Shown here in pieces: positions 4,318-31,407 of a stretch of 32,000 bases of DNA. The DNA is taken from NCBI RefSeq assembly GCF_001652585.1, contig NZ_LWLG01000005.1:1-32000 (forward strand). The letters are read 5' to 3'. This DNA comes from Thermosulfurimonas dismutans. Its GTDB lineage: Bacteria > Desulfobacterota > Thermodesulfobacteria > Thermodesulfobacteriales > Thermodesulfobacteriaceae. Under the pieces are notes generated by a model. The model saw nothing but the letters and a program-made list of their open reading frames with translations, made no database searches and was not told where the DNA came from. How positions within the stretch are numbered: position 1 is the first letter of the stretch; each line of letters begins with the position of its first letter. Position numbers and translations under genes: made by a program.

Positions 4318-4399
4318 CTTTCCTCCTCGCGTTTCGCCCTCTCTCAAGATACTACCTTTATGTTGGTGAGAAGAAAAGTTTGGGCAAGGCTTTTTTATC

Positions 4400-7585: not shown

Positions 7586-7610
7586 GATATCCCTCCAAAA
7601 CAACGCTTTA

Positions 7611-8609: not shown

Positions 8610-8612
8610 ACT

Positions 8613-8801: not shown

Positions 8802-8876
8802 CGTTTGCCTCCTTAATTTTTATTGTGGATCTACTTTTAGATTAATTCGCAAAAGTTGGTGGATCCTTGACGGAGG

Positions 8877-9167: not shown

Positions 9168-9187
9168 CTTTAGCCTCCTTTTGGGGT

Positions 9188-9556: not shown

Positions 9557-9584
9557 GATCATCTCCTTTACGATGGTATTTGTT

Positions 9585-11825: not shown

Positions 11826-11835
11826 GGTCTTGCTC

Positions 11836-14332: not shown

Positions 14333-14362
14333 TTTTTTTATCCTTTCAAAGAATTTTTTTAC

Positions 14363-14391
14363 AGGATATAAATTTAAATGATTTCTGTCAA
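14363..14391 (-). promoter_or_regulatory. Candidate sigma-70-type promoter of the copper cluster
   Basis: The minus strand reads TTGACA (14391-14386), a 17-nt spacer, then TATCCT (14368-14363), followed by GAAAGGA and the ATG at 14332. The -35 element lies inside the last codons of the upstream MetE-like gene, and the spacer contains the palindrome ATTTAAAT. Confidence 0.35.
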
Positions 14392-15435
14392 TCTCTTTAG
14401 ATCTTTAAGGGATTTTAAGGTCAACTCCTGAGATAGGGTGCCCATGCCGCAGGAGGGGGTCAGAAGGGAATGGGATAAAAGATATTCCTCGGAAAGGCCC
14501 GTACGGAGGGAGAGCTCTTTTAAAAGATCGCGGAACCTTTCGGCCAGGGATTCCGGTGTTTCTTTCTCCAGATCTTCCGATTTTAGGGTGGGTACCAGCC
14601 CCCAGGCCACTAGGCCTCCTTTTTCTAGAAAAGACTTTAATTCTTTGTCATAAGTTATGAACTTTTCGTAAAAACCATAAGCGTCAAAATTAATGATATC
14701 CGTGGGGCTGTCGGTGAGGAGGCTCCAGTCGGTGTTTCCGCAGACATGCACCCCGGCAAGGCCCCCTTCCTTGTGAACCTCTGCGATGACCTCGGAGAGA
14801 ACGGCTAAAACCTCCTCGCGGGAGACCCCCATAAAGGCCGAAGAACCGAAACCGGAGAGGGCCGGCTCATCGAAAAAGATGATCACCGAAGGGGAAAGCT
14901 CCTTGAGTTTTCGGACCTGCCAGCGGGCTTTGAGAGCCACTAGTTTTACTACCAGGTCTCTTAGTTCGAGATCATAAAAGACGGCCTTACCATCCGGGGT
15001 CTTGAGGCCCACCGCCAGGGTAAAAGGCCCGGTGATCTGGCCCTTTACCGCTGGAAGAGGAGCCTTCTCCGAAGCTTTTTCAATAAGCACAAAAAGACCG
15101 GGGGCCTCCGCAGGGGTGAGCTTGAAGCGGGTGTTCTCAAGGTCCTCTCCAGATTCGGTGACCGCCAGATACTCTTCGTAAAACGAAAGCCTTTCGGTCT
15201 CAAAATCCGGAACTCCGGGATCAATGATGAGTCTTTCGGGATCAAATCCGGGAAGACCGCTAGAAAACTGGACCAGCATACCTTCCCGGGGATAGGTAGG
15301 AAGCTGGGGCCAGCACGGAATCTTTGGTATGTATTCCAGGATCAGCTCCACAGCCTCCTCGTGGCTTTTCAGGGGAAAACTTCCGATAAGGGTAGCCTTG
15401 CCTGAAAGCTCAATTACATTTTGGTTGTAGCTCAC
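14374..15435 (-). CDS. Catalytic-domain-only MetE-like (cobalamin-independent methionine synthase family) methyltransferase
   Basis: The product is 353 aa, roughly half the length of MetE. The HVCGN motif (H-x-C) and the later PSCGMG motif match the MetE zinc-ligand motifs (HMC... and PDCG in E. coli, as I recall them). The GTG start lies 6 nt after GGAGGGG. Confidence 0.6.
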   Translation of the reverse strand: MSYNQNVIELSGKATLIGSFPLKSHEEAVELILEYIPKIPCWPQLPTYPREGMLVQFSSGLPGFDPERLIIDPGVPDFETERLSFYEEYLAVTESGEDLENTRFKLTPAEAPGLFVLIEKASEKAPLPAVKGQITGPFTLAVGLKTPDGKAVFYDLELRDLVVKLVALKARWQVRKLKELSPSVIIFFDEPALSGFGSSAFMGVSREEVLAVLSEVIAEVHKEGGLAGVHVCGNTDWSLLTDSPTDIINFDAYGFYEKFITYDKELKSFLEKGGLVAWGLVPTLKSEDLEKETPESLAERFRDLLKELSLRTGLSEEYLLSHSLLTPSCGMGTLSQELTLKSLKDLKRLTEII

Positions 15436-16267
15436 TGCATACCCCTCCGGTTTCAGGAATAAGAAGTCCAGGCATTTCGGTAGCCCCGGGAGGGATGGGC
15501 CCCGGAGCTTTTACGGGCCGGGGAAACCTTTCCCGAAGATAAGCTATAATCGCCCCCGAACCCTGTAAAATCCGGACTCTCGGTGGTTCCTTAATCACCA
15601 AAACCGGAACCCCTTTTAAATCGAGCGATCTTAGCAACCCCAAGGCCTTCTCCCGGGGGCAGAGACTAAGATTGGCCTCTGGAATCTTTTTACAGAATTC
15701 GAGGACCTCGTGACAATGCGGACATTCAGGAGAATAGATCAGAATAAGACCGGAAGAGGACGGTCTTTCGGGAAAGGCGGAGAAGGCCACCTCTTCCAGA
15801 GGAATCAGAGAAATACTGGTGAGGTAAAAGGCGACCACTATTCCTAGAAGGGCTCCCAAAAAACCGACTACGGGATATTTAAAATGCCAAAGAACGGGCA
15901 ATGCTGATCCTACAACTCCCAGAGCCACCGCGAGACAGAAAGGACACCAGAGATGATAATCAAAAGCCTGTCTTAAAAGAAAGATAGTTTCGGCCGCAAG
16001 CCCTGAGGAGGCCAGGAGAAGAAGAAGACCTCCCAACCTCTGGCCCCGTAGAACCAAAATCAGAAGGACGGAAAAGACCGCAAAGTAACCAAGCCCCAGA
16101 AGAACCATGCTTCGATGAGAGAGACGGGCAAGCTCACCCACTATAAAACAGCTACTGAGTTCACAAAAGGCTCTGCCCTTGAAATTGAGAAGGGCCTCTA
16201 CACTCAGACCGAGAGCGAATAAAAGAGCCCATACTACTGAAAATTTCAATAAACCTCTAGAAGTCAT
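15410..16267 (-). CDS. VKOR-like five-TM domain fused to a thioredoxin-fold CPHC domain (membrane disulfide-bond oxidoreductase)
   Basis: The product is 285 aa. It has five hydrophobic segments, a loop Cys pair (FCELSSC), an intramembrane CxxC (WCPFCL) and a C-terminal soluble domain with YSPECPHCHE. This is the same architecture as I recall for cyanobacterial VKOR-Trx fusions. Confidence 0.5.
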   Translation of the reverse strand: MTSRGLLKFSVVWALLFALGLSVEALLNFKGRAFCELSSCFIVGELARLSHRSMVLLGLGYFAVFSVLLILVLRGQRLGGLLLLLASSGLAAETIFLLRQAFDYHLWCPFCLAVALGVVGSALPVLWHFKYPVVGFLGALLGIVVAFYLTSISLIPLEEVAFSAFPERPSSSGLILIYSPECPHCHEVLEFCKKIPEANLSLCPREKALGLLRSLDLKGVPVLVIKEPPRVRILQGSGAIIAYLRERFPRPVKAPGPIPPGATEMPGLLIPETGGVCSELQPKCN

Positions 16268-16342: not shown

Positions 16343-18106
16343 ATGAAGCTTGATCCTACCAAGATGAAAGATTGGGAGATCGCAGCTGAGTGTGAAAAGA
16401 ATATGAAGACCGTCTATCAACTTGGAGAGGAGCTCGGTCTTACTAAGGAGGAGCTCCTTCCTTATGGACACTATGTAGCCAAGATCGACTACAAAAAGGT
16501 CCTTGAGCGGCTCAAAGATCGTCCGAATGGGAAATACATTGATGTCACCGCCATCACGCCTACCCCTCTGGGTGAGGGTAAATCTACCACCGCCATCGGA
16601 CTCATTCAGGGATTGGGAAAGCGCGGCAAAAAGGTCATCGGGGCTCTGCGTCAGCCATCCGGAGGCCCCACCTTTAATATTAAAGGTAGTGCCGCCGGAG
16701 GAGGACTCGCCCAGATCATTCCACTGGACAAATTCTCTTTAGGGCTTACCGGCGACATCAATGCCGTCATGAATGCCCACAATCTCGCCATGGTGGCTCT
16801 TACGGCCCGGATGCAGCACGAGGCCAATTACGACGACGAGACCCTGGCTAAGCGGGGCCTTAAGCGTCTCAACATCGATCCCAAACGGGTAGAGATGGGC
16901 TGGGTTATAGACTACTGTGCCCAGGCCCTCCGGCACATCGTAATCGGGCTCGGAGGCAAAAGGGACGGATATCCCATGGAAAGCAAGTTCTGGATCGCGG
17001 TGGCCTCCGAGGTCATGGCCATCCTGGCCGTGGCCCGGGACCTCAAAGATCTTCGGGAACGAATTGGAAAGATTGTGGTGGCCTTTGACAAATATGGCAA
17101 CCCCATCACCACCGAAGACCTCGAGGTGGCCGGAGCTATGACCGCCTGGTTGGTAGAAGCCATCAACCCCAACATGATCCAGACCTTAGAAGGACAGCCG
17201 GTCCTGATCCACGCCGGGCCGTTTGCCAATATCGCTATCGGTCAGTCCTCCATCATAGCGGATTACGTAGCCCTCAAGCTTGCGGACTACAACGTCACCG
17301 AATCCGGTTTCGCGGCTGATATCGGTTTCGAGAAGTTCTGGAACATCAAGTGTCGGCTCTCAGGACTGACTCCGGACTGCGTAGTGGTAGTGGCCACCAT
17401 ACGGGCCCTCAAGTGCCACGGAGGTGCTCCGATTCCTCCTCCGGGCAAACCTATTCCCAAAGAGTACTTCGAGGAAAACTTGGAATGGGTGGAGAAAGGG
17501 TGCGAAAACCTCATGCACTGTGTGAACATCGTAAAGAAGAGCGGCGCCACTCCGGTGGTCTGTATCAACGCCTTCCACACCGACACCAAGGACGAGATCA
17601 ACCTGGTCAAACGCATCTGTGAGGAACACGGCGTGCGGGCGGCCATCTCCGAACACTGGCTCAAGGGCGGCGAAGGAGCCCTTGAACTGGCGGACGCCGT
17701 AGTAGATGCTTGTGAGGAAAAGAGTGAGTTTAAGTTCCTCTACGAACTCGATGAGCCGGTGAAGACCCGTATCGAAAAGATAGCTACCGAGGTCTATGGG
17801 GCCGACGGTGTGGTGTATCTCCCCGCCGCGGAAGAGAAAATCAAACTCATCGAAGCCGATCCCGAACTTCGCCAGATGCCCATCTGCATGGTGAAGACCC
17901 ACCTCTCCCTCTCCGATAATCCCAATCTCAAAGGCGTACCCAAGGGGTGGCAGCTCCGCGTGCGCGACGTGCTGATCTATCGCGGTTCGGGATTTATCGT
18001 CCCGGTAGCCGGCGACATCAGCCTCATGCCCGGAACCGGTTCAGACCCGGCTTACCGTCGCATTGATGTAGACGTGGAAACCGGAAAGGTAAAGGGCCTC
18101 TTCTAA
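16343..18106 (+). CDS. fhs: Formate-tetrahydrofolate ligase
   Basis: The product is 587 aa. The P-loop region [12 protein letters not shown] and the whole-length pattern are typical of Fhs. The RBS is AAGGAGGGGG. Confidence 0.95.
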
Positions 18107-18121
18107 ATGAGGAGAAACGTT

Positions 18122-18148
18122 CCGGCCGGGGAGAAATTCCTCGGCCGG
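18122..18148 (+). terminator. Strong GC hairpin after fhs (possible terminator or mRNA stabiliser)
   Basis: The sequence CCGGCCGGGGA-GAAAT-TCCTCGGCCGG forms an ~11-bp stem starting 16 nt after the fhs stop. The trailing T tract is weak (GCTTTC), so termination efficiency is uncertain. Confidence 0.35.
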
Positions 18149-18272
18149 GCTTTCAAACCTTCAGTAAGGTACCCGAAAATTTTACAAAAGTATCATTAGT
18201 TACGATCACAATCAGATTGGCATGTATCTTGCTAACGTTAGTGTCTTTCGAAAGGACACAAGGAGGTAAAGT

Positions 18273-19175
18273 ATGGCGGCCAAAATCATAAGCGGCAAAG
18301 AAATCTCCAAAGAAATCCGGGAAGAGCTTAAAAAAGAGGTCCAGGAACTCAAGGAAAAACATGGTGTTACTCCGGGGTTGGTAACCATCTTGGTAGGCAA
18401 CAATCCGGCTTCGGTCTCCTATGTGACGGCCAAGCAAAAGGCCGCGCACGATCTAGGTTTTTATTCCGTTCAGGACAATCAACCTGAAGATATTAGTGAA
18501 GAGGCCCTACTGGATCTCATCAAAAAATACAACGAGGATCCTAAGATCCACGGTATTCTGGTGCAGCTTCCACTTCCTAAGCACATCGACGAGCGCAAGG
18601 TCATCTATGCCATCGATCCTCGAAAGGACGTAGACGGTTTCCATCCGGTAAATGTAGGTAAGATGGTGATCGGCGAGCCTTGCTTTTTGCCCTGCACTCC
18701 GCACGGCATATTGGTCATGCTCGAGCGGGCTGGAGTGGAAGTGGATGGAGCCGAGGTGGTGGTCGTTGGTCGGAGCAACATCGTGGGCAAACCGGTTGCC
18801 AACCTGCTTCTTCAGAAGCGGAAACCGGTAGGCAATGCCACGGTCACGGTCTGTCATACCGGAACGCGAGACATGGCCTTTCATACTCGGAGGGCCGACA
18901 TCCTGATCGTGGCGGCGGGGCGCCCTAAGGTCGTTACAGCGGACATGGTTAAAGAAGGGGTGGTGGTGATTGACGTCGGAGTAAATCGTATAGGAACCAC
19001 TCCGGAAGGCAAGGCCATCCTCTGTGGAGACGTGGATTTTGAGAGTGTCAAGGAGAAGGCCGCGGCCATTACCCCGGTTCCCGGTGGGGTAGGCCCCATG
19101 ACCATCACCATGCTCATGAAAAATACCGTGGAGGCAGCCAAGCTCTGGGCAGGACTTCCCTGTGAGGTGGCTTAG
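18273..19175 (+). CDS. folD: Bifunctional 5,10-methylene-THF dehydrogenase / 5,10-methenyl-THF cyclohydrolase
   Basis: The product is 300 aa. The motifs PGLVTILVGNNPASVSYV, GILVQLPLP, VVVVGRSNIVGKP and PVPGGVGPMT are canonical FolD. Confidence 0.95.
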   Translation: MAAKIISGKEISKEIREELKKEVQELKEKHGVTPGLVTILVGNNPASVSYVTAKQKAAHDLGFYSVQDNQPEDISEEALLDLIKKYNEDPKIHGILVQLPLPKHIDERKVIYAIDPRKDVDGFHPVNVGKMVIGEPCFLPCTPHGILVMLERAGVEVDGAEVVVVGRSNIVGKPVANLLLQKRKPVGNATVTVCHTGTRDMAFHTRRADILIVAAGRPKVVTADMVKEGVVVIDVGVNRIGTTPEGKAILCGDVDFESVKEKAAAITPVPGGVGPMTITMLMKNTVEAAKLWAGLPCEVA

Positions 19176-19221
19176 GTATAAATTTCAAAATTGAAATCAA
19201 TCTAAAGTTAGGAGGATTTTA

Positions 19222-21264
19222 ATGGATCCCAGGGCAAGAATGAAGGGTAAGAGGACGCCTAAAGTCCAGAACAAGACGGCTCAGGTTATTTACGAAAGTC
19301 TGGGCGAGGAAATTCTTACGGCTCCGGCTCGAGTGGAACGCCGAGGGACCACGCCCTGTCTCTTTGGTAAAGGGGGTACCTGTTGTCGGGTCTGTAACAT
19401 GGGCCCATGTCAGGTGGTGGAGGGCGTGGAAGAACTTAAAGGCGTCTGCGGAGCTAGTGCGGCTACGGTAGTGGCCCGGAACTTCGGACGTATGGTGGCC
19501 AGCGGTGGCTCAGCTCACTCGGATCATGGCCGGCAGGTGGCTATTGATTTTTATGAAACCGTTCATGGTGAGACGCCTTTTGAGGTCAAAGACAAACGCA
19601 AGTTGCGGGTGGTAGCTCAGGCTCTGGGAGTCGATCCCAATCAGGAAGAACCGGAACTTCTGAAACAGATAGCTGAGGTTGCTTTGAGGGTTTTTAACCA
19701 GCAGGAAGGTGAAATCCCCTTTATACGTCGGGCACCGGAGAAGAGGCAGGCCCTCTGGCGTGAGCTGGGGGTGGTGCCTCGGGGGGTAGATCGCGAGGTG
19801 GTAGAACTTCTCCACCGGACTACCATTGGTGTGGATCAAGACTACCGGAATATCCTTATGGCCTGTGCCCGCACGGCTCTGGCCGATGGCTGGGGCGGCT
19901 CTATGATCGCCACCGAGCTCCAAGACTTACTATTTGGCAATCCTGGGCCTATCAAGGCCAAAGTCAACATCGGCCTAAGCGTCATTAGGGAAGACATGGT
20001 GAACGTGGCCGTGCACGGGCACGAACCAGTTCTGGCCGAGGCTCTGGCCATGGCGGCTAGCGATCCCGAGATCGTGGAAGAGGCCAAGAAAGTTGGGGCG
20101 AAAGGCGTAAATCTCGCCGGTATCTGTTGCACTGGGAACGAGATCCTCATGCGACGCGGTATTCCGGTAGCCGGAAGCTTTTTACAGCAGGAAGCGGCCA
20201 TTGCTACCGGGGCTCTTGAGGCCGTAGTGGTGGATGTCCAGTGTATCATGCAGAACGTGGTCGAGATCGCCAAACACTTCCACACCGCGGTCATCACCAC
20301 CAATCCTCGGGCCAAGATGGAAGGTGGTATTCACTTGGAATTCGACGCCCGCAAGGCCCTTGATTGCGCCAAGGCCATCCTGCGGGAGGCCATCGCTAGA
20401 TTTCCGAAGCGGGATAAATCTAAGGTCAATATTCCGGATCATACCGTGGATGTGGTGGTGGGCTTCAGTCACGAGACTATCCTTTATATGTTAGGGGGAC
20501 GTTTCCGGGCTTCCTACAAGCCTTTAAACGAGAACATCATCAACGGTAAAATCCTCGGTGTGGCAGCCATCGTAGGTTGCGACAACTATAGGGTAACCGA
20601 AGAAATCCAGGTTGAACTGGCCAAGGAACTCATCGCCAACAATGTGCTGGTGCTCACCACCGGTTGCGCGGCTACTGGGCTTGGACGGGCCGGTTTATTG
20701 CGGCCTGAGGCCGCGGAATTAGCCGGAGACAGCCTCAGAGAGGTGCTTGAGGCCGTAGGCTGTCCTCCAGTGCTTCACATGGGCTCTTGCGTGGACAACA
20801 GCCGTATTTTGGTGGCGGCCAGCGAAATGGTCCACACCGGTGGCCTGGGAGAAGACGTAAATGAACTTCCGGTGGTGGGGTGTGCGCCTCAGTGGATGAG
20901 CGAAAAGGCCATTACCATCGGTCAGTATTTCGTGGCTTCCGGGGCTACCGTGGTCTTCGGTCCGGATTTTCCGACCCTACAGAGCCAAGTGGCTACGGAC
21001 TTTCTCTTCCATGAGATGGAGAAGATCTTCGGAGCCGCCTGGCGAGTGGCCAGAACCGCGGAAGAATTTGCCTCCATTATGATCGATCATATCAAAAACA
21101 AGCGCAAGGCCCTGGGTATCGACAAACCCAAACCCAGAGTGCTCTTCGATATGGCCATGCGTCGGGCCCTTGAGAGCCCGAAGGTCACCAGTCCTTTCCA
21201 CGGACTGGGCTGTTTTGGACCACTTAGTCTAAAGGTGAATCCGGAAGAAGAAAAGGCGGCTTAA
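19222..21264 (+). CDS. acsA: Ni-Fe carbon monoxide dehydrogenase catalytic subunit
   Basis: The product is 680 aa. The N-terminal Cys motifs [19 protein letters not shown] supply the D/B-cluster ligands, and later motifs include HGHEP and GICCTGNE. It lies in a cluster with acsB, acsC and acsD. Confidence 0.9.
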
Positions 21265-21286
21265 AAATCATGGAAGGAGGCTCTTA

Positions 21287-24200
21287 ATGGCCAAGAAATC
21301 GGGAAAAGTACTCGTGGTGGGGGGAGGTATCGCCGGGATCCAGACGGCCTTGGATCTCGCAGAGCTTGGCTATTACGTCTATCTAGTGGAGAAAAAGGCC
21401 ACCATCGGGGGGGTAATGGCCAAGCTGGATAAGACCTTCCCCACCAACGACTGTAGTATCTGAATACTGGCGCCCAAAATGGTGGAGGCCGGTCGGTCTC
21501 CCAATATCGAAATCCTCACTCTGGCGGAGGTAGAAAGTCTTTCCGGAAAACCGGGAAAGTTTAAAGCAAAGGTCAAAATTCGCCCTCGCTACATCGATCC
21601 AGATAAATGCACGGCTTGTGGTCAGTGTATGCAATACTGTCCGCGTGAGGCGGTGGACGAATACAACGAACGTCTAGATTTTACTCGGGCGGCTCGCATC
21701 GACTTTCCCCAGGCCGTGCCCACGGCCTATTACATCGACGAGGACCGTTGTCTCCAGCTCAACCACGAAACTTGTATGATCTGCACTAACGTCTGCGGTC
21801 CCAAGGCCATCGACTTCAATCAGGAACCAGAGATCCGGGAGCTTGAAGTTGGAGCGGTGGTGCTCTGTCCGGGCTTCGGGAACGTTCCAGAAGAGGCCCT
21901 TACGAAATATGGTTACGGAATCTATCCCGACGTTATGACCAGTCTTGAAATCGAACGTCTCATGTGTGTTTCCGGCCCCACGGAAGGCGAAATCATACGA
22001 CCTTCGGACTTTTCTCATCCCCGAAAGATCGCCTTTCTCCAGTGCGTAGGCTCAAGGGACGTTTCTTGTGGCCGTCCTTTCTGTTCCTCGGTCTGCTGTA
22101 TGTACGCCATGAAAGAGGCCTCCATGCTAAAAGAACATGCCCCGGAGGCCGAAATCGCTCTCTTTTTCATGGACGTGCGCACCCAAGGCAAAGGCTTCGA
22201 CGCCGCCTTTGAGCGGGCGGTAGACAAATACGGGTTCCGCGTGATCAAGGCCAGGGTGCCCAAGGTAGAACAGGTGGACGGGCGTCTGGCCTTGAACTAT
22301 GTCACCGAAGAGGGCACGGTTCACCGGGAACTTTTCGATCTGGTGGTGCTCTCGGTAGGTCTTTCAGCCCCGGAAGGTGCTGAAGAGTTGGCCAAAAAGT
22401 TCGGAATTGAGCTCAATCCCTTCGGTTTTGCCAAAACCGAAGTCAAAGACCCGCTCACTGCCAAATCCGGCATATATGTGGCTGGTGCCTTCCATGGACC
22501 TAAGGACATTCCAGAAAGCGTCATGCAGGCCAGCGGTGCAGCGGCCAAGGTCTCGGAATTGCTAGCTGAGGCCCGGGGCCAGGACATGGTCGAAAAGGAG
22601 TTCCCGCCCGAGGATCAAGAACTCCTTGAGATGCCGGTGAGGGTGGGAGTCTTCGTGTGTCACTGTGGGGTAAACATTGCTGGAGTGGTGGACGTTGAGG
22701 CCGTAAGAGACTACGCCAAGTCCCTTCCTGGGGTGGTCTATGCCGAAAACGTACTCTATTCCTGCGCTCAGGACTCTCTTGAAAAACTCAAGGAGAAAAT
22801 CAAGGAACACAAACTAAACCGATTGGTGATTGCGGCCTGCAGTCCACGCACCCATGAACCCCTATTTCAGGAGACGCTGCGGGAGGCCGGGCTCAACCTG
22901 GCTTTGGTGGAAATGGCCAACATCCGAGACCAATGTTCCTGGGTGCACGCCGACGACCCTGAGAAAGCCACTCAGAAGGCTAAGGACCAAGTACGCATGG
23001 CGGTGGCCAAGGCTCGGAGATTGAAGCCACTTGAACTCCAGAAGGTCAAGGTTACGCCTTCGGCACTGGTCATCGGTGGAGGGGCTGCTGGTATGGCAGC
23101 CGCCCTTTCCATCGCGGATCAGGGCTATGAGGTACATCTTGTTGAAAAGGAGGCTGAGCTTGGAGGTCACTTGCGCCGGGTGAAATTTCTTGCTGAAGGC
23201 GAGAACCCGCAGAAGATCCTAAAGGATCTCATCACACGGGTGGAAAAACACGAAAATATTCGAGTTTACAAATCGGCTTCGGTGGAAAATATCTCGGGTT
23301 ATGTCGGAAACTTTACCTCTACTATTAAGGTCAAAGAGGGCTCAAAAGTCATAAACCACGGAGTGGTGGTGGTAGCCACCGGAGCTAAAGAACATAAACC
23401 TAGTGGATATCTTTACGGAAAGAACCGCAAGATACTCACGCAGCTTGAACTTGAGGAGAAGCTTTCGCGCGGCAAGCGTGGTTTGGGAAAGACCCGCCGG
23501 GTAGTCATGATCCAGTGTGCTGGTTCGCGGGGGGAGGAGTTGCCCCACTGTAGCAAGCTCTGTTGTCAACAAGCGGTCAAAAACGCCCTGCGTATCAAAG
23601 AGCTCTCCCCGGAGACGGAGGTTTTCATCTTCTATCGTGATATGCGAACTTACGGTTTTTATGAGGAACTTTACCGCAAAGCCCGCAACCAGGGGGTGAT
23701 CTTCCTCCGCTATGAGCCTACTCAGCGGCCCGAAGTGCTAAAGAAAGGACGAGGGATCGTGGTTCGGGGCTATGACGCCCTTCTGGGGGAAGAGATCGAG
23801 ATTCCTGCGGACCTAGTGGTGCTTTCGGTAGGCGTGGCTCCAGACAAAGAGAACCCCATCGCTCAGATCCTCAAGACCCCGATGACCGACGAGGGTTTCC
23901 TCATGGAGGCCCACGTAAAACTCCGTCCGGTGGAAGTAGCCGTAGATGGAGTTTACATCTGTGGTCTGGCCCACGGGCCCAAGCCCTTGGAGGAGACCCT
24001 GGCCCAGGCCAAGGCTGCGGCTGGCAAGGCGGTAATCCCGTTGGCCAAGGGGTTCGTAGAGGTTCCGCCGATCGTCTCTCGGGTAGAAGAAAAGAAGTGT
24101 ATCGGTTGTGGTATCTGCGCTTCCCTTTGTCCTTATAACGCCATTGAGATGGTCAAAAAGGAGAAACGCCGCAAGGCCCAAGTGATCGCAGCGGCCTGTA

Positions 24201-24352
24201 AGGGCTGTGGTGTCTGCGGTTCACACTGTCCGGTCTTCGCCATTACTCTGGGCGGCTTTACCGACGAAGCCATACTGGAACAGATCCAGGCCTTTGGACT
24301 TCCAGAGGCCGAAGAATCCAAAGAGGCTGAATTGGAAAAAGAAGCGGCTTAA
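21287..24352 (+). CDS. hdrA: HdrA-like flavoprotein, double length, with in-frame UGA (Sec) at 21461-21463
   Basis: The ATG at 21287 lies 7 nt after GGAGG and opens the same frame as track ORF 21479..24352. The translation is [71 protein letters not shown]. The UGA replaces the second Cys of the conserved HdrA DCSMC motif. A second GGGAAG dinucleotide fold and a C-terminal 2x[4Fe-4S] motif are present. Confidence 0.85.
21484..21501 (+). promoter_or_regulatory. Candidate bacterial SECIS hairpin for hdrA
   Basis: GGAGGCC-GGUC-GGUCUCC forms 7 bp including one G-U pair, and begins 20 nt after the UGA. The GGUC apical loop is the same tetranucleotide I recall from the E. coli fdhF SECIS loop. Confidence 0.5.
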
Positions 24353-24364
24353 GGAGGGGTTAGG

Positions 24365-25084
24365 ATGCAATTTGAACCCAGGATTTTAAGTTTTCTTTGC
24401 AACTGGTGTTGTTATGCAGCAGCGGATTCGGCGGGAGTGGCCCGGTTCAGTTACCCTCCGAACAACCGGGTCATCCGGATTATGTGTACTGGCAGGATGG
24501 ATCCCCAGTTCGTAGTAGAGGCCTTTTATGTTCGTGCTGACGGCGTTTTCGTAGGCGGGTGACACTTGGGAGAGTGCCATTACCAGTCTGGTAATTACGA
24601 AGCTCTAGTCATGGCGGAGACCGTAAGGCGAATCTTGGATACAGTGGGTATCAACCGGGAGCGTTTTACTATCGACTGGGCCTCCGCGGCGGAAGGCCCC
24701 CGTTTCGTAAAGCTTTTGACTGAATTCACTGAAAAAATAAAGACTATGGGCCCTCTGGGCGAGGCCGAGGGCTTGGATTGGGAAACCCTCAAGTTCCGGC
24801 TTGAAGCCGCTCGCAATCTCTGTAAAAATATGCAATTTCGAGCCCAGTACGGTAATCTGGCCAAAGAGATAAAGAAGTTGGGAGACTATAGTCCGGAGAA
24901 CATCTCCCAGGCGATAGAAAAGAAACTGGTGCCCCAGATAAGGAAGAGAATCTTCGAGGCCGAGCTCAAGGAACTTATAGCTCAGGGTCCCCAGGCGGTG
25001 GAAGTCCTCAGGGAGAAGACCGGGGCTACGGAAGAAGAAATCGGGGCCATTCTTGAAACCCTGAAAAAGAAGGAGAAAAAGTGA
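24365..25084 (+). CDS. mvhD: MvhD-family (methyl-viologen-reducing hydrogenase delta subunit-like) protein with in-frame UGA (Sec) at 24560-24562 and a C-terminal extension
   Basis: Track ORFs 24365..24562 and 24566..25084 are in the same frame and are separated only by TGA-CAC. The joined sequence reads ...ADGVFVGG-U-HLGECHYQSGNY..., against the MvhD consensus GGCHxGDCHY. The N-terminal FLCNWCCYAAADSAG is a typical MvhD motif. Confidence 0.8.
24579..24595 (+). promoter_or_regulatory. Candidate SECIS hairpin for mvhD
   Basis: AUUACC-AGUCU-GGUAAU forms 6-7 perfect bp with a loop containing GU. It begins 16 nt after the last base of the UGA. Confidence 0.45.
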
Positions 25085-25626
25085 TGGAACTTACGGTAGA
25101 AAAAAACTGGGTTTCCGAGGTCAAGAGTCTTCCCGAGACTTTGGCTCAGTGTTTTCGGTGTGGGGCTTGCTCGGGAATCTGTCCAGTAAAGCGCATCCGT
25201 AAAGACTTCGATCCTCGTGTGATTGTCCATGCCACCATCTTAGGGATAAAAGACAAGCTCTTTGGTACGCCTATCCTTTGGCACTGCTCTCAGTGTCAGA
25301 GCTGTGTGCCGGTGTGCCCCATGGAGGTAAAGCCGGCTGAGGTTATCAAAGCCCTGAGGGACTATGCCCTTAAAGAAGGCCTGGCCAGCGAGGAGACCCT
25401 CTTTGAGGCCGGAAGATTGGCCAGGGTCAATCCTAAAAAGTGCATTGTATGTCTCACCTGTGTGCGGGTGTGCCCCTTCGGGGCGCCAAGCATCAAAGAC
25501 GAAGGTTATGCGGTTATCGATCCGGCCAAGTGTCACGCCTGCGGTATTTGTGTGCAAGAATGTCCGGCCCGGGCCATAGAGCTTCATCCCGCGGCCGAAT
25601 TTGCCACTTACAAATGGGGGGTTTAG
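25084..25626 (+). CDS. Four-cluster-motif 4Fe-4S protein (HdrC-like N-terminal half plus ferredoxin-like C-terminal half)
   Basis: The Cys motifs are CFRCGACSGICP, CSQCQSCVPVCP, CIVCLTCVRVCP and CHACGICVQECP. The ATG at 25084 overlaps the mvhD stop (TGATG). No CCG (HdrB-type) motif is present. Confidence 0.7.
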   Translation: MELTVEKNWVSEVKSLPETLAQCFRCGACSGICPVKRIRKDFDPRVIVHATILGIKDKLFGTPILWHCSQCQSCVPVCPMEVKPAEVIKALRDYALKEGLASEETLFEAGRLARVNPKKCIVCLTCVRVCPFGAPSIKDEGYAVIDPAKCHACGICVQECPARAIELHPAAEFATYKWGV

Positions 25627-25632
25627 TAAGCG

Positions 25633-26034
25633 ATGGCCGATATCAAGATTGGAATCCTCTGTTGTCATTACACCAATACCTCGGACGAGGAAGACTTTAA
25701 GGGTCTGCCCGCGGACGTGATCATGAAACGTTTCCCCTGCTCCGGCCACATTGAAGTGGCGGATATCCTCAAGACCTTTGAGGAAGGAGCCGAGGCCGTG
25801 TTGGTGGCCGGCTGCGAGAAGGACAGTTGCCACAATATTTCGGGAAGCGTGCGGGCGGAAAAGCGGGTCCTAGGAGCCCGGAAAATTTTGGAAGAAATTG
25901 GCCTTTCTGGCGAAAGAGTCAGAATGGCCTTTGTACCCCGATTGGATTCGGGAACATTTATGACCGAAGTAAAATCCCTATTCGAGATTGCTTTAAATTT
26001 GAAGTCTAAGTCCAAAGGAGATGGGCAAAAATGA
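25633..26034 (+). CDS. Second MvhD-family protein (Cys version)
   Basis: The product is 133 aa. The motifs ILCCHYT and ...EAVLVAGCEKDSCHNISG align with the Sec-containing paralogue (GG-U-HLGE-C-H against AG-C-EKDS-C-H). Confidence 0.7.
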   Translation: MADIKIGILCCHYTNTSDEEDFKGLPADVIMKRFPCSGHIEVADILKTFEEGAEAVLVAGCEKDSCHNISGSVRAEKRVLGARKILEEIGLSGERVRMAFVPRLDSGTFMTEVKSLFEIALNLKSKSKGDGQK

Positions 26035-26702
26035 TAATTGCAGAAAGAAAACCCATTCCCAAGGTGTTAAAGGCTATCGAGCCTTATGACAAAGTGCTGG
26101 TGTTAGGGTGTCGGGGCTGCGTGGCCATTTGTTCGGCCGGAGGCGACCGGGAGGTCGAGACCATAGCTGCGGCCTTGAGGCTGGCCAGAAAGCTTTCCGG
26201 AAGGCCGCTTGAGACCGGAGAGGCCACGCTCATTCGGCAGTGCGATCCAGAGTATCTGGCCGTGCTTCCAGAGATGGCCAAAGATTACCAGGCCGTGGTG
26301 TCTTTGGCCTGTGGGGTAGGGGTCAATTTGATTGCGGATCTTTATCCTGAGATTCGGGTTTATCCGGGCGTGGATACCTCTTTTTACGGGGCCAACTCGG
26401 CCTTAGGAGAATGGCAAGAAAAATGTCGGGGTTGTGGAGACTGTATCCTGGATATCACAGGTGGCCTCTGTCCCATCGCCCGGTGTGCCAAAAATCTTTT
26501 GAATGGACCCTGCGGGGGGTCCCAAGGCGGACGTTGTGAGATCCGTCCAGAGGTCCCCTGTGTGTGGCACCAGATCTACGAGAGGCTTTCTTCCCGGGGC
26601 GAGCTTGAGCGGTTGCTCAACTTCTTCCCGGCCAAGGACTGGCGTCCGGCCGGACATGGAGGTCCCCGGGAGAGGATAAGAGAAGACCTGCGTATGGGAT
26701 AA
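26031..26702 (+). CDS. metV: MetV (MTHFR C-terminal-domain-like small subunit of methylene-THF reductase)
   Basis: The product is 223 aa. The motifs MIIAERKP, LGCRGCVAIC, CRGCGDCIL, GGLCPIARCAKNLLNGPCGG and CxW match my recollection of Moorella MetV. The start overlaps the upstream stop (ATGA). Confidence 0.75.
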   Translation: MIIAERKPIPKVLKAIEPYDKVLVLGCRGCVAICSAGGDREVETIAAALRLARKLSGRPLETGEATLIRQCDPEYLAVLPEMAKDYQAVVSLACGVGVNLIADLYPEIRVYPGVDTSFYGANSALGEWQEKCRGCGDCILDITGGLCPIARCAKNLLNGPCGGSQGGRCEIRPEVPCVWHQIYERLSSRGELERLLNFFPAKDWRPAGHGGPRERIREDLRMG

Positions 26703-26727
26703 AAACGGGTAGAAAAGGAGGGGAAGG

Positions 26728-29169
26728 GTGGAGCCTAGAAGCCATCTTCAAAAAGTTCTTTCCGAAGGGCACTTCGCCGTTACCGCAGAGATCGGCCCTC
26801 CCAAGAGTGCTGATGGAGAGGTCGTAAGAAAGAAGGCCCGGATTCTCAAAGGTTACGTGGACGCGGCCAACATCACCGACTGTCAGACGGCTATTGTCCG
26901 GATGTCCTCCATTGCTTCGGCGGTGTTGGTGATGGCTGAAGGGGTAGAGCCGGTCATCCAGATGACTTGCCGCGACCGGAACCGGATCGGTATCCAGGCC
27001 GATCTCCTAGGGGCGGCGGCCCTGGGGGTAAAGAATCTCCTTTGTATCACCGGTGACCACCAGAAGTTCGGGAATCATCCCGAGGCCAAAGGGGTCTTCG
27101 ATCTGGACTCCATCCAACTTACGGCCATGGTGCGCCAGATGAGGGACGAGGGTAAGTTCCTCTGCGGGGAAGAACTCACTGGTGCCCGGCCAGAATTTTT
27201 TATCGGGGCGGTGGAGAATCCCTTTGCCGATCCTTTTGAATTCAGGGTAAAGCGGCTGGAAAAAAAGGTCAAAGCCGGAGCGGAATTCATCCAGACCCAG
27301 ATTATCTACAACGTAGAGCGTTTCAAGAAGTTTATGGAGATGGCCCGAGATTTAGGGCTCACGGAGAAGGTCTATATCCTGGCCGGGATCACGCCTCCCA
27401 AGTCCTTCGGTATGGCCCGTTACATGAAGTATTTTGTGCCGGGCTTGGACGTACCAGACGAGATCCTCAAGCGCATGAAAGAGGCCAAGGACAAACGGGA
27501 GGAAGGTATCAACATTGCGGTAGACATCATTCAACAGGTACGCGAGATCCCGGGCGTGGCCGGCGTACACATCATGGCCATCGAATGGGAAGAGGCCGTC
27601 CCTGAGATCGTAAAACGGGCCGGGCTCCATCCGAGACCGCTTGAGGCTGAGGTCAAGCCGGCCATTGCAGTAGAAGTCGAACGTCCTGAAAAGATTGAAG
27701 TGGTGGCCCCACCCAAAGAGGAGGAAGAAGTGGCCGAAGGGCCGCCTAAGATAGAGATCCCCGTAGAGGCCGTCAAAGAGGTCTTTTCCTCGGTGCGTTC
27801 AAGCATCGAGTCCCTGCGTGAAGGTATCAATCTCCTTCATGACAGTTTGGCCAGGCTTGAGCGTGCTCTCCTTGGTGGAGAGGTGGTCCCGGCGGAGGTG
27901 CCGCAGGTAGAGGTCAAGGTGGAAGAGAAACCGGTGGTAGAGGAAAAACCTGCGGAAGAAGAGAAACCGGCGGTGGAAGAGAAGCCGGTAGAGGAGATCA
28001 AGAAAGAAGTCAAACCAGAAGAAGAGAAGCCGGAAGAAAAACCGACTGAAGAAGAGCCCGAGGCCAAACCGATTGCAGAAGAACCCAAGGCTGCAGAACC
28101 TAAGCCGGAAGAGAAGCCGGCGGTGGAAGAGAAGCCGGCGGCTCCAGCTGGGCCTCCGCCTGAAGGTGTGGAACTTGGTGGCTTTATAGGTGAGTACCGT
28201 CCGCTTTCCGAACGAGCGGCGGGGCTCCCCGAGGATCTCTATAAAGATCCGGGTACGGCTTTCATACGGGAGGTAGAGATCGGTAAGGGCGAAAAGGCCT
28301 TCAAGGTTGGTGGTACCAACGTGCTCCCCTTCCAGCTCTTTGAAGGCGAGATGAAAAACCAGCCTCGCATTGCCATGGAGGTCCTAGACGTAAAGCCTGA
28401 AAACTGGCCGGAGAGCCTGGCCAAATATTTCGAGGACGTCTTTGACGATCCTGCGGCCTGGGCCAAAAAGTGCGTGGAGACCTACGGAGCCGAGGCCGTA
28501 TGTGTATATCTCATGGGTACAGACCCCAACTATCTGGACTTGGATGCCAAGCATGCCCGGGAAGTAGTAGAGAAGGTCGTCAAGGCCGTGGACGTGCCCA
28601 TCGTGGTCTGGGGTGCTGGACATGCGGAGAAAGACGTGGAGGTTTTGAGGGAAGTGGCCGAGATCCTTGGAGATCGTGGAGCAGTCATTGGTCCGGTGGA
28701 GGAGGCCAATCATCGTACCTTGGGGGCCACGGCCATGGGTTACGGGCTCCCGGTAGTGGCGACGAGCCCTATCGACGTGAACCTAGCCAAGCAGTTGAAC
28801 ATCCTCCTTGAGAATATTGGAGTGTCACTCGACAAGATCCTGATGGACCCTTCCATCGGAGCCCTAGGTTACGGTCTGGAGTACACCTACTCGGTGATGG
28901 AACGTATTAGGCTTGCGGCCCTTTACGCCCAGGACGAAAAGCTCCAGGTGCCTTTTGTCTGTAACGTGGGGCGCGAAGTCTGGAAGACCAAAGAAGTGGG
29001 GCTTCCCACCGACGAGATACTGGGCGACCAGGAGGTTCGCGGCGTCCTCATGGAGGCCATTACCTCGGTGGCTTTGGCGCTGGCCGGAGGCGATCTTTTT
29101 ATCATGCGTCATCCCAAAGCCATTGAGCTAACAAAGACGATTATAAGCGCTCTTATGCAAGAAAATTAA
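26728..29169 (+). CDS. metF: Fusion protein: MetF (methylene-THF reductase, aa 1-~302), a Glu/Lys/Pro-rich linker, then AcsD (corrinoid Fe-S protein small subunit, aa ~510-813)
   Basis: This is a single uninterrupted 813-codon ORF with a GTG start after AAAGGAGGGGAAGG. The N-terminal part has MetF motifs (AVTAEIGPP, CRDRN, LCITGD, FIGAVENPF, FIQTQ). The C-terminal part aligns along its length with my recollection of M. thermoacetica AcsD (LPFxxFEGE, AMEVxD, SPIDxNxxKQLNILxxxxG, DPSIGxLGYGxEYxxSxMERIRL, MRHP). Confidence 0.85.
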   Translation: MEPRSHLQKVLSEGHFAVTAEIGPPKSADGEVVRKKARILKGYVDAANITDCQTAIVRMSSIASAVLVMAEGVEPVIQMTCRDRNRIGIQADLLGAAALGVKNLLCITGDHQKFGNHPEAKGVFDLDSIQLTAMVRQMRDEGKFLCGEELTGARPEFFIGAVENPFADPFEFRVKRLEKKVKAGAEFIQTQIIYNVERFKKFMEMARDLGLTEKVYILAGITPPKSFGMARYMKYFVPGLDVPDEILKRMKEAKDKREEGINIAVDIIQQVREIPGVAGVHIMAIEWEEAVPEIVKRAGLHPRPLEAEVKPAIAVEVERPEKIEVVAPPKEEEEVAEGPPKIEIPVEAVKEVFSSVRSSIESLREGINLLHDSLARLERALLGGEVVPAEVPQVEVKVEEKPVVEEKPAEEEKPAVEEKPVEEIKKEVKPEEEKPEEKPTEEEPEAKPIAEEPKAAEPKPEEKPAVEEKPAAPAGPPPEGVELGGFIGEYRPLSERAAGLPEDLYKDPGTAFIREVEIGKGEKAFKVGGTNVLPFQLFEGEMKNQPRIAMEVLDVKPENWPESLAKYFEDVFDDPAAWAKKCVETYGAEAVCVYLMGTDPNYLDLDAKHAREVVEKVVKAVDVPIVVWGAGHAEKDVEVLREVAEILGDRGAVIGPVEEANHRTLGATAMGYGLPVVATSPIDVNLAKQLNILLENIGVSLDKILMDPSIGALGYGLEYTYSVMERIRLAALYAQDEKLQVPFVCNVGREVWKTKEVGLPTDEILGDQEVRGVLMEAITSVALALAGGDLFIMRHPKAIELTKTIISALMQEN
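27883..28161 (+). repeat. In-frame low-complexity (E/K/P/V/A) repeat region inside the metF-acsD linker
   Basis: The peptide is ...VEVKVEEKPVVEEKPAEEEKPAVEEKPVEEIKKEVKPEEEKPEEKPTEEEPEAKPIAEEPKAAEPKPEEKPAVEEKPAAPAGPP. It includes an exact 22-nt DNA repeat, CCGGCGGTGGAAGAGAAGCCGG, at 27967-27988 and 28117-28138. Confidence 0.8.
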
Positions 29170-29184
29170 AGGAGGTTGCGAGCT

Positions 29185-31407
29185 ATGTCCAAGATCATTG
29201 CTAGCGCGGCCATTCGTGGGGCTCATAAGATTGTGGAACGGGCCCAAGAAAAATATGAGGAGGCCGTGAAGAAATTCGGAAAGGATACCGAGGTCGCTTT
29301 CCCGAACACGGCCTATTATCTGCCCATCATTTATGCCATGTTGGGTTATCCGGTAAAAAAGCTCGGAGATTGCGGAGAAGTTCTGGAAGAGGCCAAGCGC
29401 CTGCTGCCTCCGGTGCCCACAGACGAGCTCTGGACCCCTTATCTGGGGCCGGCGCTCGATGCCGGTATGGCTACTTTCTTTGCGGAAGAGATCATTGAGG
29501 CCATCCGCTATCTGGAGGATCCCAATTTCTACACCAAAACTGAGGAGCCAGTTAATGGAAACATTTGGCTTGGAGCGGCCGACGACGTGATCTTTCGTAA
29601 ACGTGGAGTGGAATTTGTGGATGGCACGGCTCCAGGGTTTGCAGCCATTCTCGGCGCTCCGCCGAACAAAGAAATTGCCGTCAAGATCGCCCAGGAGCTC
29701 CAGGAAAAGAACCTCTACGTCTTCATGCATTCAGACACCAACGGGGTGCGTATGGCCGAACAGCTTAAAGAGGCTGGGGTTCAGCTCGGCTGGCCCACCC
29801 GTTTGGTTCCCTTCGGTCCGGACACCACCTCGGTGGTCTTCGCTATCGGCTTTGCCTGCCGGGTAGCTATGGCCTTTGGTGGTATCAAACCCGGAGACTA
29901 CATGGGTAACCTCCTTTATAACAAAGACCGAACCTTTGCCTTCGCCATAACTTTCGGTCCGGTTTCCGACGAATGGTACGCCAATGGAGCCGGGGCCATC
30001 AACTGGGGCTTCCCGGTGATCTCCGACTGGGACATCCCTGAGATCAAGCCCTTTGGGGTGTGTACTTACGAACACGTGGTCTCCAAGGTGCCCCACGAAG
30101 AGATCGTGGACCGAGCCATTGAAGTCCGAGGGCTCAAGGTCACCACGGTGAAGCTCGACATCCCGGTAGCCTATGCCCCGGCTTTTGAAGGGGAAAGGGT
30201 CCGTAAGGACGATCTCTATCTGGAGTGCGGTGGTGGAAGGACTCCGGCAGTTGAACTCCTGATCTCCAAGCCCCTTGAGGAAGTGGAAGACGGAAAGATC
30301 GAGGTCATAGGCCCTGAAATAAACGAGGTGGAAAAGCTTGGCATAAAAGGACCTCCCTATCGTTTACCCTTTGCAGTAGTGGTGGAAGTAGCTGGAGCTA
30401 ACATGCAGGAGGACTTCGAGGCTATTCTTGAGCGGCAATTCCATCACCTCATCAACTACGCCCAGGGTATCATGCACGTAGGGCAACGTAATATCATGTG
30501 GCTGCGGATCAGTAAGGCTGCTGTAGAAAAAGGATTCCTCTTCAAGCACATCGGGGAGATCCTTTACGCCAAGATGCGCCAAGAGTTCGGCGCCATCGTG
30601 GACAAGTGCCAGGTGACCATCTATACCGAAGAAGAGAAGGTCAAGGAGATCCTGGAGCTGGCCAAGGAGGTCTATACCCGGCGTGACGAACGGATAGCCG
30701 GTATGACTGACGAGACCGTAGACGTGTACTATTCCTGCACTCTGTGTCAAAGCTTTGCACCCAGCCACGTGTGCGTAATCACGCCGGAACGGATCGGTAT
30801 GTGCGGGGCCTACAACTGGCTCGACGGCAAGGCCTGCTACGAGATCAATCCCACTGGTCCCAACCAGCCTATTGAAAAAGGTGAGGTTATTGACGAGAAG
30901 CTAGGACAGTTCTCCGGTATAAACGAGTTCGTGAAGAAGGCCTCCAGAGGGAAGGTAGAAAGGGTGAGCCTTTACAGTATCATGGTAGACCCCATGACGG
31001 CCTGCGGATGTTTCGAGTGTATTGCAGCCATGTTGCCCTCGGTAAACGGCATCATGATCGTAAACCGTGATTATCTTGGCATGACTCCCTCGGGCATGAA
31101 GTTTTCTACCATGGCCGGTATGGTGGGTGGCGGTCAGGTGACCCCCGGTTTCATGGGGGTCTCTAAGCACTATATCACCTCTCGGAAATTTCTTATTGCC
31201 GAAGGGGGGCTTAAACGGGTGGTCTGGATGCCCAAGATGCTCAAAGAAGAACTTAAAGACAAGCTCAAGCAGCGGGCCGAAGAGCTGGGGATCCCCGATC
31301 TCATCGACAAGATTGCAGACGAGACTGTGGCCTCTACGGAACAAGAAGTCAAGGAATGGGTGGAAAAGGTCAAACACCCGGTTCTAGAGATGGAACCCTT
31401 GATGTAA
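29185..31407 (+). CDS. acsB: Acetyl-CoA synthase (A-cluster subunit of CODH/ACS)
   Basis: I prefer the ATG at 29185, 9 nt after AAAGGAGG, over the track TTG at 29176. The sequence closely parallels my recollection of M. thermoacetica AcsB throughout (NTAYYLPII, GPAFEGERVRK, GQRNIMWLRISK, YSCTLCQSFAPSHVC, TACGCFEC, PMTPSGMKFST). Confidence 0.92.
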   Translation: MSKIIASAAIRGAHKIVERAQEKYEEAVKKFGKDTEVAFPNTAYYLPIIYAMLGYPVKKLGDCGEVLEEAKRLLPPVPTDELWTPYLGPALDAGMATFFAEEIIEAIRYLEDPNFYTKTEEPVNGNIWLGAADDVIFRKRGVEFVDGTAPGFAAILGAPPNKEIAVKIAQELQEKNLYVFMHSDTNGVRMAEQLKEAGVQLGWPTRLVPFGPDTTSVVFAIGFACRVAMAFGGIKPGDYMGNLLYNKDRTFAFAITFGPVSDEWYANGAGAINWGFPVISDWDIPEIKPFGVCTYEHVVSKVPHEEIVDRAIEVRGLKVTTVKLDIPVAYAPAFEGERVRKDDLYLECGGGRTPAVELLISKPLEEVEDGKIEVIGPEINEVEKLGIKGPPYRLPFAVVVEVAGANMQEDFEAILERQFHHLINYAQGIMHVGQRNIMWLRISKAAVEKGFLFKHIGEILYAKMRQEFGAIVDKCQVTIYTEEEKVKEILELAKEVYTRRDERIAGMTDETVDVYYSCTLCQSFAPSHVCVITPERIGMCGAYNWLDGKACYEINPTGPNQPIEKGEVIDEKLGQFSGINEFVKKASRGKVERVSLYSIMVDPMTACGCFECIAAMLPSVNGIMIVNRDYLGMTPSGMKFSTMAGMVGGGQVTPGFMGVSKHYITSRKFLIAEGGLKRVVWMPKMLKEELKDKLKQRAEELGIPDLIDKIADETVASTEQEVKEWVEKVKHPVLEMEPLM

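Follow-up and report, generated by a model that had tools for sequence, protein, structure and literature searches.

Genes at the locus

We analysed a window of 32,000 nucleotides (nt) from Thermosulfurimonas dismutans (contig NZ_LWLG01000005.1, positions 1 to 32,000 of the forward strand), with attention to mvhD1, a gene for a protein of the FrhD/MvhD/VhuD family (PF02662). Its reading frame contains an in-frame TGA codon, predicted to encode selenocysteine (Sec), and this codon is followed by a hairpin with the features of a bacterial selenocysteine insertion sequence (SECIS). The gene lies directly downstream of a tandem hdrA gene, which has an in-frame TGA of its own, and upstream of genes for an iron-sulphur (Fe-S) protein, a second MvhD-family protein (MvhD2), MetV and a MetF fusion. 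All are part of a Wood-Ljungdahl gene cluster (Table 1).

Table 1. Coordinates of mvhD1, its predicted recoding elements and the genes of the surrounding cluster (positions are those of the window).
Feature	Position	Strand	Description
mvhD1	24365..25084	+	predicted selenoprotein gene of 239 codons; PF02662 at residues 7-129, helical tail at 135-239; stop TGA 25082-25084
UGA codon, predicted Sec-66	24560..24562	+	one of four family-wide Cys columns; equals the second Sec column of M. maripaludis VhuD
Predicted SECIS element in coding sequence	24575..24599	+	7-bp core stem at 24579-24595 closed by a GUC loop; conserved synonymous sites
hdrA (tandem)	21287..24352	+	partner of mvhD1; two thioredoxin-reductase-like domains, in-frame TGA
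181-aa Fe-S protein	25081..25626	+	HdrC-like Fer4_8/Fer4_17 N-terminal half and a 2x[4Fe-4S] ferredoxin half
mvhD2	25633..26034	+	PF02662 paralogue of 133 aa; TGC 25813-25815
metV	26031..26702	+	DUF5981 / methylenetetrahydrofolate reductase (MTHFR) C-terminal family
metF-cdhD/acsD fusion	26728..29169	+	MTHFR at residues 7-299, CdhD/AcsD-like at 515-756
acsB	29176..31407	+	Wood-Ljungdahl cluster member
fhs	from 16343	+	Wood-Ljungdahl cluster member
folD	from 18273	+	Wood-Ljungdahl cluster member
cooS	from 19222	+	Wood-Ljungdahl cluster member

mvhD1 is one gene read through a conserved TGA

Two open reading frames (ORFs), 24365..24562 and 24566..25084, share a frame and are separated only by the TGA at 24560-24562. 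Across this codon the translation reads ...DGVFVGG*HLGECHYQSGNY..., which corresponds to the peptide ADGVFVGG[U/C]HLGECHYQSGNYEALVMAETVR around residue 66. An earlier sequence-only reading of this DNA had taken the two ORFs for one gene continuous through the TGA, and had placed the TGA where MvhD proteins carry a Cys within a characteristic motif. Both proposals are upheld by our data. With Cys put at the stop, a single PF02662 match extends across the TGA (E=3e-48, 163 bits versus a cut-off of 22.3). The mvhD1 product aligns end to end to solved MvhD chains with E-values down to 6e-48, and where these chains read VFVGGCH(L/I)GDCHYDSGNY the window has VFVGG*HLGECHY. A Shine-Dalgarno sequence, GGAGG (24353-24357), stands 7 nt before the ATG at 24365, and the 3' end of hdrA is 12 nt upstream of mvhD1. 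HdrA is encoded upstream of mvhD1 in 77 of the 80 loci fetched; in the other three (L010, L015 and L030) the DNA begins too near mvhD1 to show it.

The codon aligned to UGA-66 is TGA in 64 of 77 related genome loci and TGC or TGT in the other 13, while TAA or TAG occurs in none. Both sides of the TGA are conserved at the protein level across these loci, which represent many families. Database proteins that are 72-98% identical to the mvhD1 product are all N-terminally truncated fragments beginning after the TGA, and the full-length homologues (45-63% identity) have Cys at the residue-66 site. The closest relatives in a genome collection are Thermodesulfatator and Thermosulfurimonas metagenome-assembled genomes (79-84% identity). 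The same split into 65 and 172 aa recurs on at least four contigs from four samples (seven were read), and hence it is not an assembly error. A collection of 5.8 billion proteins holds no exact mvhD1 product, the best match being a 98%-identical fragment of 172 aa, whereas MvhD2 is present at 100% identity as a T. dismutans protein. This difference suggests, without proof, that the public record of T. dismutans either lacks an annotation of mvhD1 or marks the gene as a pseudogene.

A hairpin after the TGA is conserved only where the TGA is present

The sequence-only reading had also noted a perfect hairpin of 6-7 bp at 24579-24595, and the stem proves to be a perfect one of 7 bp (ATTACCA-GTC-TGGTAAT) that starts 16 nt after the TGA. 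Next to the core, U.G, G-C and C/U-A pairs may form on either side of a C.U mismatch. Only 20 perfect 7-bp hairpins of this kind occur on the + strand of the window, and for any given site the chance of one beginning 8-30 nt downstream is about 1.4%. A bacterial SECIS is typically a stem-loop directly after the UGA whose apical loop contains a G, with consensus rules for distance and loop in the bSECISearch literature; the first loop base of the present element is an invariant G. The archaeal VhuD gene, of the same family, has its SECIS in the 3' untranslated region, whereas the hairpin in the window is part of the coding sequence.

When the SECIS regions of mvhD1 and hdrA were folded as single sequences, both had z-scores close to zero, so that thermodynamics alone is uninformative here. 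We compared synonymous variation in TGA-type and Cys-type mvhD1 genes, which provide a natural contrast for SECIS selection at identical codons. The stem codons CAT TAC CAG nnn GGT AAT (+6, +7, +8, +10 and +11) show zero synonymous entropy in 65 TGA-type genes, in which neighbouring codons have an entropy of 0.5-1.9 bits. In contrast, every stem codon varies in the 13 Cys-type genes (0.5-1.5 bits). The stem is perfect in 53 of the TGA-type genes and has 6 bp in the other 12, compared with a perfect stem in only one of the 13 Cys-type genes. Because the stem codons are frozen in the one class and free in the other, selection appears to act on the RNA and to be tied to recoding of the UGA. As judged from this comparison of sequences, the hairpin behaves as a SECIS, that is, as an RNA element selected only where a UGA must be recoded.

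Two of the Cys-type mvhD1 genes, at L080:6193 and L013:6193, retain an intact SECIS-like stem (CATTACCAG...GGTAAT), and the hdrA upstream of the former still has its TGA. These two genes look like recent Sec-to-Cys conversions.

We propose that UGA-66 is decoded as selenocysteine during translation. From its conserved anatomy, the hairpin would be a bacterial SECIS that brings SelB.GTP.Sec-tRNA(Sec) to the ribosome. Codon conservation and the frozen stem together lead us to predict Sec at this position with very high confidence.

The predicted Sec-66 occupies a family-wide cysteine column

Cys or Sec residues are found in MvhD1 at positions 12, 15, 16, 41, 66, 71 and 153, and MvhD2 has Cys at positions 10, 11, 36, 61 and 66. 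In MvhD1 numbering, columns 12, 41, 66 and 71 are shared between MvhD1, MvhD2, VhuD and the remaining solved MvhD chains. Hence all four conserved PF02662 Cys positions are filled in MvhD1 (C12, C41, U66 and C71), one of them by the predicted Sec. The structure of Methanococcus maripaludis VhuD (PDB 9sfi_K) has unknown-residue marks, which stand for Sec, at CYQ-X and at AG-X-KPNEC; the first aligns with Cys15 of MvhD1 and the second with residue 66.

In BamF of Geobacter metallireducens, a Sec of the N-terminal motif, Sec19, lies near the [2Fe-2S] cluster (bioRxiv 10.64898/2026.04.10.717634), and by our own reading it is not itself a cluster ligand. A literature search for the MvhD cysteines that ligate the [2Fe-2S] cluster returned nothing usable, the Nature 2026 paper covering only HdrA Sec197. 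Given that Sec-66 replaces one of the four PF02662-wide cysteines, and given that the residue of the N-terminal motif is read as a non-ligand, the alignment suggests that Sec-66 is probably a ligand of the [2Fe-2S] cluster or sits directly beside it.

HdrA and MvhD1 change state together

The frame of hdrA contains an in-frame TGA at 21461-21463 (…NDCSI*ILAPK…) and, after it, a hairpin at 21484-21501 that has a 7-bp stem and a GGUC loop. We compared the states of the two genes at the loci that have both sites on the contig. HdrA and MvhD1 were Sec/Sec in 52 and Cys/Cys in 8, one locus combined HdrA-Sec with MvhD-Cys, and the reverse combination was not seen, giving concordance in 60 of 61. HdrA and MvhD therefore change between Sec and Cys together.

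HdrA has around 1,020 residues with two regions of the FAD/thioredoxin-reductase-like type (FAD, flavin adenine dinucleotide). Residues 7-45 carry an FAD Rossmann motif, and another region, of the Pyr_redox_2 type, was found at 530-830 of the C-terminal 957-aa fragment, which is about residues 594-894 of the full protein; tblastn returned internal self-matches. Such a ‘type II’ or fused-dimer layout is that of archaeal type II HdrA and of BamE (for BamE, bioRxiv 10.64898/2026.04.10.717634). MvhD1 would serve as the [2Fe-2S] electron adaptor of this upstream tandem HdrA, itself likewise predicted to contain Sec.

MvhD1 carries a helical C-terminal tail

Residues 135-239 of MvhD1 (105 aa) lie outside the Pfam domain and past the end of all solved MvhD chains (129-141 aa). 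Charged residues (K/R/D/E) make up 37% of this tail versus 22% of the domain. All homologues of 200-266 aa have at least the first half of the tail, including the motif R..(Y)GNLAKE..K.GDYS.E.I. To describe its structure we used an AlphaFold2 (AF2) model of P0005, a full-length homologue 56% identical to MvhD1 (mean predicted local distance difference test score, pLDDT, 87.9; predicted template modelling score, pTM, 0.89). The MvhD domain takes up residues 1-128 of the model and the tail region is all helical, with helices at 139-154, 156-172, 177-207, 212-219 and 223-235, the last two being short. Against 5odh_D and 8rvu_F the model gave template modelling (TM) scores of 0.87-0.93, normalised to target length. 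When the PDB was searched with the model by Foldseek, all matches fell in the MvhD domain and none in the tail. The charged helical extension of about 100 aa that had been read from the sequence is thus confirmed in length and charge, and in helicity for the modelled homologue, and the whole subfamily shares this 105-aa helical tail.

The longer homologues run around 20-30 residues past the last helix, a stretch that may form a wing, and one homologue, P0043, has a DprA winged-helix Pfam match. Together with these extensions the tail is consistent with a winged helix-turn-helix of the BamF type, without establishing one. By analogy with BamF, the tail would probably dock the adaptor onto partner subunits.

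Alternative readings of the UGA and of the MvhD pair

UGA-66 could instead be decoded as Cys, either always or at low selenium, by selC*, a tRNA(Cys) that resembles tRNA(Sec) and has the anticodon UCA. The tRNA would possibly be delivered by a SelB-type factor, and the gene would then yield a Cys or a Sec form according to selenium supply. Genes of this kind are reported in Thermodesulfobacteria among other anaerobes, and a deltaproteobacterial selC* tRNA suppressed UGA as Cys in E. coli (PMC5389517). Furthermore, Cys is tolerated at the residue-66 column (13 of 77 loci), and selenium flexibility would be explained without a backup paralogue. Set against this, the window holds no tRNA gene, and Thermodesulfobacteria genomes with selC* carry a complete selABCD set, so that the route would supplement Sec insertion rather than replace it (PMC5389517). 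The strict retention of both TGA and SECIS in 64 loci argues in addition that Sec itself is selected. We consider decoding as Cys unlikely.

A second possibility, raised by the sequence-only reading, is that MvhD1 (Sec) and MvhD2 (Cys) are interchangeable at one site according to selenium supply, as are VhuD and VhcD. That reading was right to see a second MvhD-family protein with Cys at the aligned position: MvhD2 matches PF02662 with E=1.2e-23, and its TGC aligned to UGA-66 gives the sequence AGCEKDSCH. The two PF02662 proteins share one operon, and two published accounts describe switching between Sec and Cys isoenzymes in Methanococcus (PMC13518236; PMC2702500). However, the proposed pairing for selenium switching was not borne out. 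The two proteins are only 26% identical over 117 residues and differ in architecture and Cys motifs, MvhD1 having 239 aa and MvhD2 133 aa, no tail and no Cys at the column of MvhD1 Cys15. From the gene arrangement, mvhD2 would share a transcript with metV and be coupled to it in translation, and would not be under regulation of its own. Moreover, MvhD2 orthologues have TGC or TGT wherever the site is readable (L001-L006, L009-L011, L013, L014 and L019; L007 was not read). The order Fe-S gene, mvhD2, metV is kept alongside a Sec-type MvhD1 in L001-L007, L010, L011 and L019, and equally alongside an MvhD1 that is already of the Cys type in L009, L013 and L014. As the example of VhcD and VhuD shows, a true Cys backup would be a closely related isoform, and a locus whose MvhD1 is of the Cys type would have no need of one.

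Because its position and its Cys are constant whether MvhD1 has Sec or Cys, MvhD2 is a separate subunit and not a selenium-free stand-in; the simplest view makes it a second [2Fe-2S] relay, on the side of MetV. Synteny indicates that MvhD1 and MvhD2 most likely occupy distinct sites, and we judge an exchange between them to be very improbable. If selenium flexibility does exist in this lineage, the selC* route is more plausible than a swap to MvhD2.

Least credible of all is termination at 24560 in a split gene or pseudogene, giving a 65-aa fragment and perhaps a 172-aa fragment from TTG 24566. Gene callers do make this split in every database copy and a G-rich stretch precedes the TTG. Against this reading, the split would sever the PF02662 fold between conserved Cys three and four, the 77 loci (from many families) have no stop other than TGA at the site and otherwise only codons for Cys, both flanks are conserved at the protein level, synonymous sites of the hairpin are frozen only when the TGA is present, and no restart codon is conserved, since the called fragments start at different residues.

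Several points weigh against our preferred reading of mvhD1 as a selenoprotein gene with its own SECIS and a place in a larger complex. The free energy of the hairpin is unexceptional compared with shuffled sequences (z = -0.24), and no SECIS or other relevant Rfam match was obtained, either over the whole window at gathering thresholds or over 21200-25200 at permissive E-values. The 32-kb window contains no tRNA and no selA, selB or selD. Indirect support for Sec machinery comes from hdrA, as another gene of the operon with a UGA and a hairpin, and from the full selABCD set reported for Thermodesulfobacteria with selC* (PMC5389517). As the stem is invariant, compensatory covariation cannot be shown, and support for the element comes down to the contrast between Sec-type and Cys-type genes. 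Cluster ligation by Sec-66 is argued by elimination and not from coordinates, and the structure model is that of the homologue P0005 and not of MvhD1 itself. What the tail does and which subunits make up the complex described below are judged from synteny and by comparison with BamF and the Moorella complex. Weighing these points, we still regard it as highly probable that mvhD1 is a single gene for a 239-residue, Sec-containing MvhD-type selenoprotein, the SECIS and the assignment to the complex included.

The operon and the proposed complex

From 16343 to the end of the window the + strand carries a single, tightly packed Wood-Ljungdahl cluster in which several stop and start codons overlap. 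The start of the 181-aa Fe-S gene overlaps the mvhD1 stop, and the mvhD2 stop overlaps the metV start. Related loci keep the 181-aa Fe-S gene after mvhD1. A scan of the operon for promoters and terminators found nothing exceeding the shuffled expectation. Pfam searches found no HdrB (CCG-domain) protein among the + strand operon ORFs scanned (16343-31407), and the only HdrC-like element in the operon is the N-terminal half of the 181-aa protein, joined to its 2x[4Fe-4S] ferredoxin. The MetF-CdhD/AcsD fusion is one ORF of 813 aa with around 200 residues between its domains that have no Pfam match. In related loci it gave one continuous match (L002-L004 and L007) or two separate matches (L001, L006 and the Desulfobacterota loci).

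Based on gene order and translational coupling, we propose that MvhD1, HdrA, the HdrC-like Fe-S protein, MvhD2, MetV and MetF-AcsD form an HdrB-less variant of the flavin-based electron-bifurcating methylene-tetrahydrofolate reductase of the Wood-Ljungdahl pathway. MvhD2 would act as a second, non-redundant adaptor tied to MetV. A more detailed model is possible but doubtful, and we put it forward as speculation. It is that of a novel HdrB-less reductase with two MvhD proteins in series, in which the long Sec-MvhD1 is docked on the tandem Sec-HdrA and ligates its own [2Fe-2S] cluster by its selenolate, the short all-Cys MvhD2 sits on MetV, and MetF is fused to the small subunit of the corrinoid protein. 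If this were true, the methyl group would pass directly to the acetyl-CoA synthase machinery, and HdrA and MvhD1 would strictly co-vary in Sec because their two selenium residues work as a pair where electrons travel between the cluster and the flavin at which they bifurcate.

The hdrA-mvhD1 pair is found throughout Thermodesulfobacteriota, and it lies inside Wood-Ljungdahl clusters in Thermodesulfobacteria and in some Desulfobacteria. Most of the Desulfobulbaceae-type loci fetched show the pair without the other genes of the operon alongside. On the chromosome of Candidatus Electrothrix sp. YB6 (L044, 2876-6612), Sec-hdrA and Sec-mvhD1 stand alone among unrelated genes, with a DUF6155 protein upstream and a dihydroorotate dehydrogenase downstream, and the redox partner in cable bacteria is not evident there. 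It is this isolated occurrence that leads us to view hdrA-mvhD1 as a portable bifurcation module. A further locus, L008 (JAIWHJ010000031.1), is binned as Promethearchaeota (Asgard) and has a bacterial-type cooS-hdrA-mvhD1 arrangement with the TGA and a bacterial-style hairpin within the coding sequence; probably the contig contaminates that bin or the locus was acquired by transfer.

Comparison with known systems

PF02662 (FrhD/MvhD/VhuD) is among the experimentally verified selenoprotein families, and hdrA-frhD selenoprotein operons occur in Deltaproteobacteria (PMC13188914). VhuD of M. maripaludis belongs to the same fold family as MvhD1 and has Sec in the same column (AG-U-KPNEC versus GG-U-HLGEC in the window), and it is likewise a [2Fe-2S] adaptor bound to a Sec-containing HdrA (PMC13518236; PMC13188914). 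It differs in having a further Sec in an N-terminal CxxU motif, at a position taken by Cys15 in MvhD1, and in being only 134 aa long without the helical tail, in contrast to the 239 aa of MvhD1 with its tail. VhuD serves a hydrogenase or a formate dehydrogenase, whereas the window operon has MetVF.

BamF, from the class II benzoyl-CoA reductase of G. metallireducens, is more than 100 aa longer than classical MvhD, contains Sec and touches a partner subunit through a winged helix-turn-helix (bioRxiv 10.64898/2026.04.10.717634). It pairs with BamE, a fused HdrA dimer of two thioredoxin-reductase-like units (bioRxiv 10.64898/2026.04.10.717634), and the window pair has the same layout. The Sec of BamF, however, is residue 19 in the N-terminal motif, whereas residues 12, 15 and 16 of MvhD1 are Cys and its predicted Sec is residue 66 in the GG-U column. 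The downstream partners also differ, being BamGHI/BamBC for BamF and MetVF in the window, and the two tails are likened by description and not by sequence.

The HdrCBA-MvhD-MetVF (‘Met’) complex of Moorella thermoacetica is encoded by clustered hdrA, mvhD, metV and metF genes, as in the window (PMC5736913; PMC6085437). Compared with it, the window operon is without HdrB and has HdrC replaced by the 181-aa HdrC-like/ferredoxin fusion. Its HdrA is a tandem protein with a predicted Sec, there are two mvhD genes, and MetF is joined to an AcsD-like domain.

Published accounts describe a Sec-containing mvhD next to a Sec-containing hdrA/hdrL in Desulfobacterium autotrophicum, with four annotated (PMC2702500), and a Sec-containing mvhD beside a Sec-containing hdrA in Desulfococcus multivorans (PMC5109826). 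In these descriptions both are bacterial PF02662 selenoproteins encoded directly after hdrA and split in two by gene callers, like the window gene. These two species are Desulfobacteria, whereas the window belongs to Thermodesulfobacteria.

Sec-containing MvhD is thus already known from Methanococcus, Desulfobacterium, Desulfococcus and Geobacter (BamF), and mvhD1 of the window is an overlooked case in its lineage. A limited literature search found no description of this exact operon arrangement, and only the HdrB-less, double-MvhD MetVF architecture could prove new. The points on annotation and on the SECIS contrast leave knowledge of the family unchanged.

In T. dismutans and its relatives, gene callers split the Wood-Ljungdahl-associated hdrA and mvhD, each in two. 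The published T. dismutans genome analysis places the Wood-Ljungdahl cluster at TDIS_0997 to TDIS_1010, and selenocysteine is absent from its text. Because the genes are split and Sec goes unmentioned, metabolic reconstructions of these vent autotrophs miss a need for selenium at the methylene-tetrahydrofolate reductase step.

Other genes in the window

A copper/heavy-metal island occupies 4929-13935 on the - strand and includes two P-type ATPases, one with two HMA domains, together with three more HMA-domain ORFs, two of which overlap other ORFs. The island also encodes a three-domain multicopper oxidase, a MerT-like protein and an Lcl_C-domain protein. Between the island and a VKOR-like protein (15410-16267) lie two - strand ORFs of 127 and 353 aa without a Pfam match (13949-15435). 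At 1663-4347 the window encodes a PIN-domain protein on the + strand and, on the - strand, an aldehyde:ferredoxin oxidoreductase with a polyferredoxin partner.

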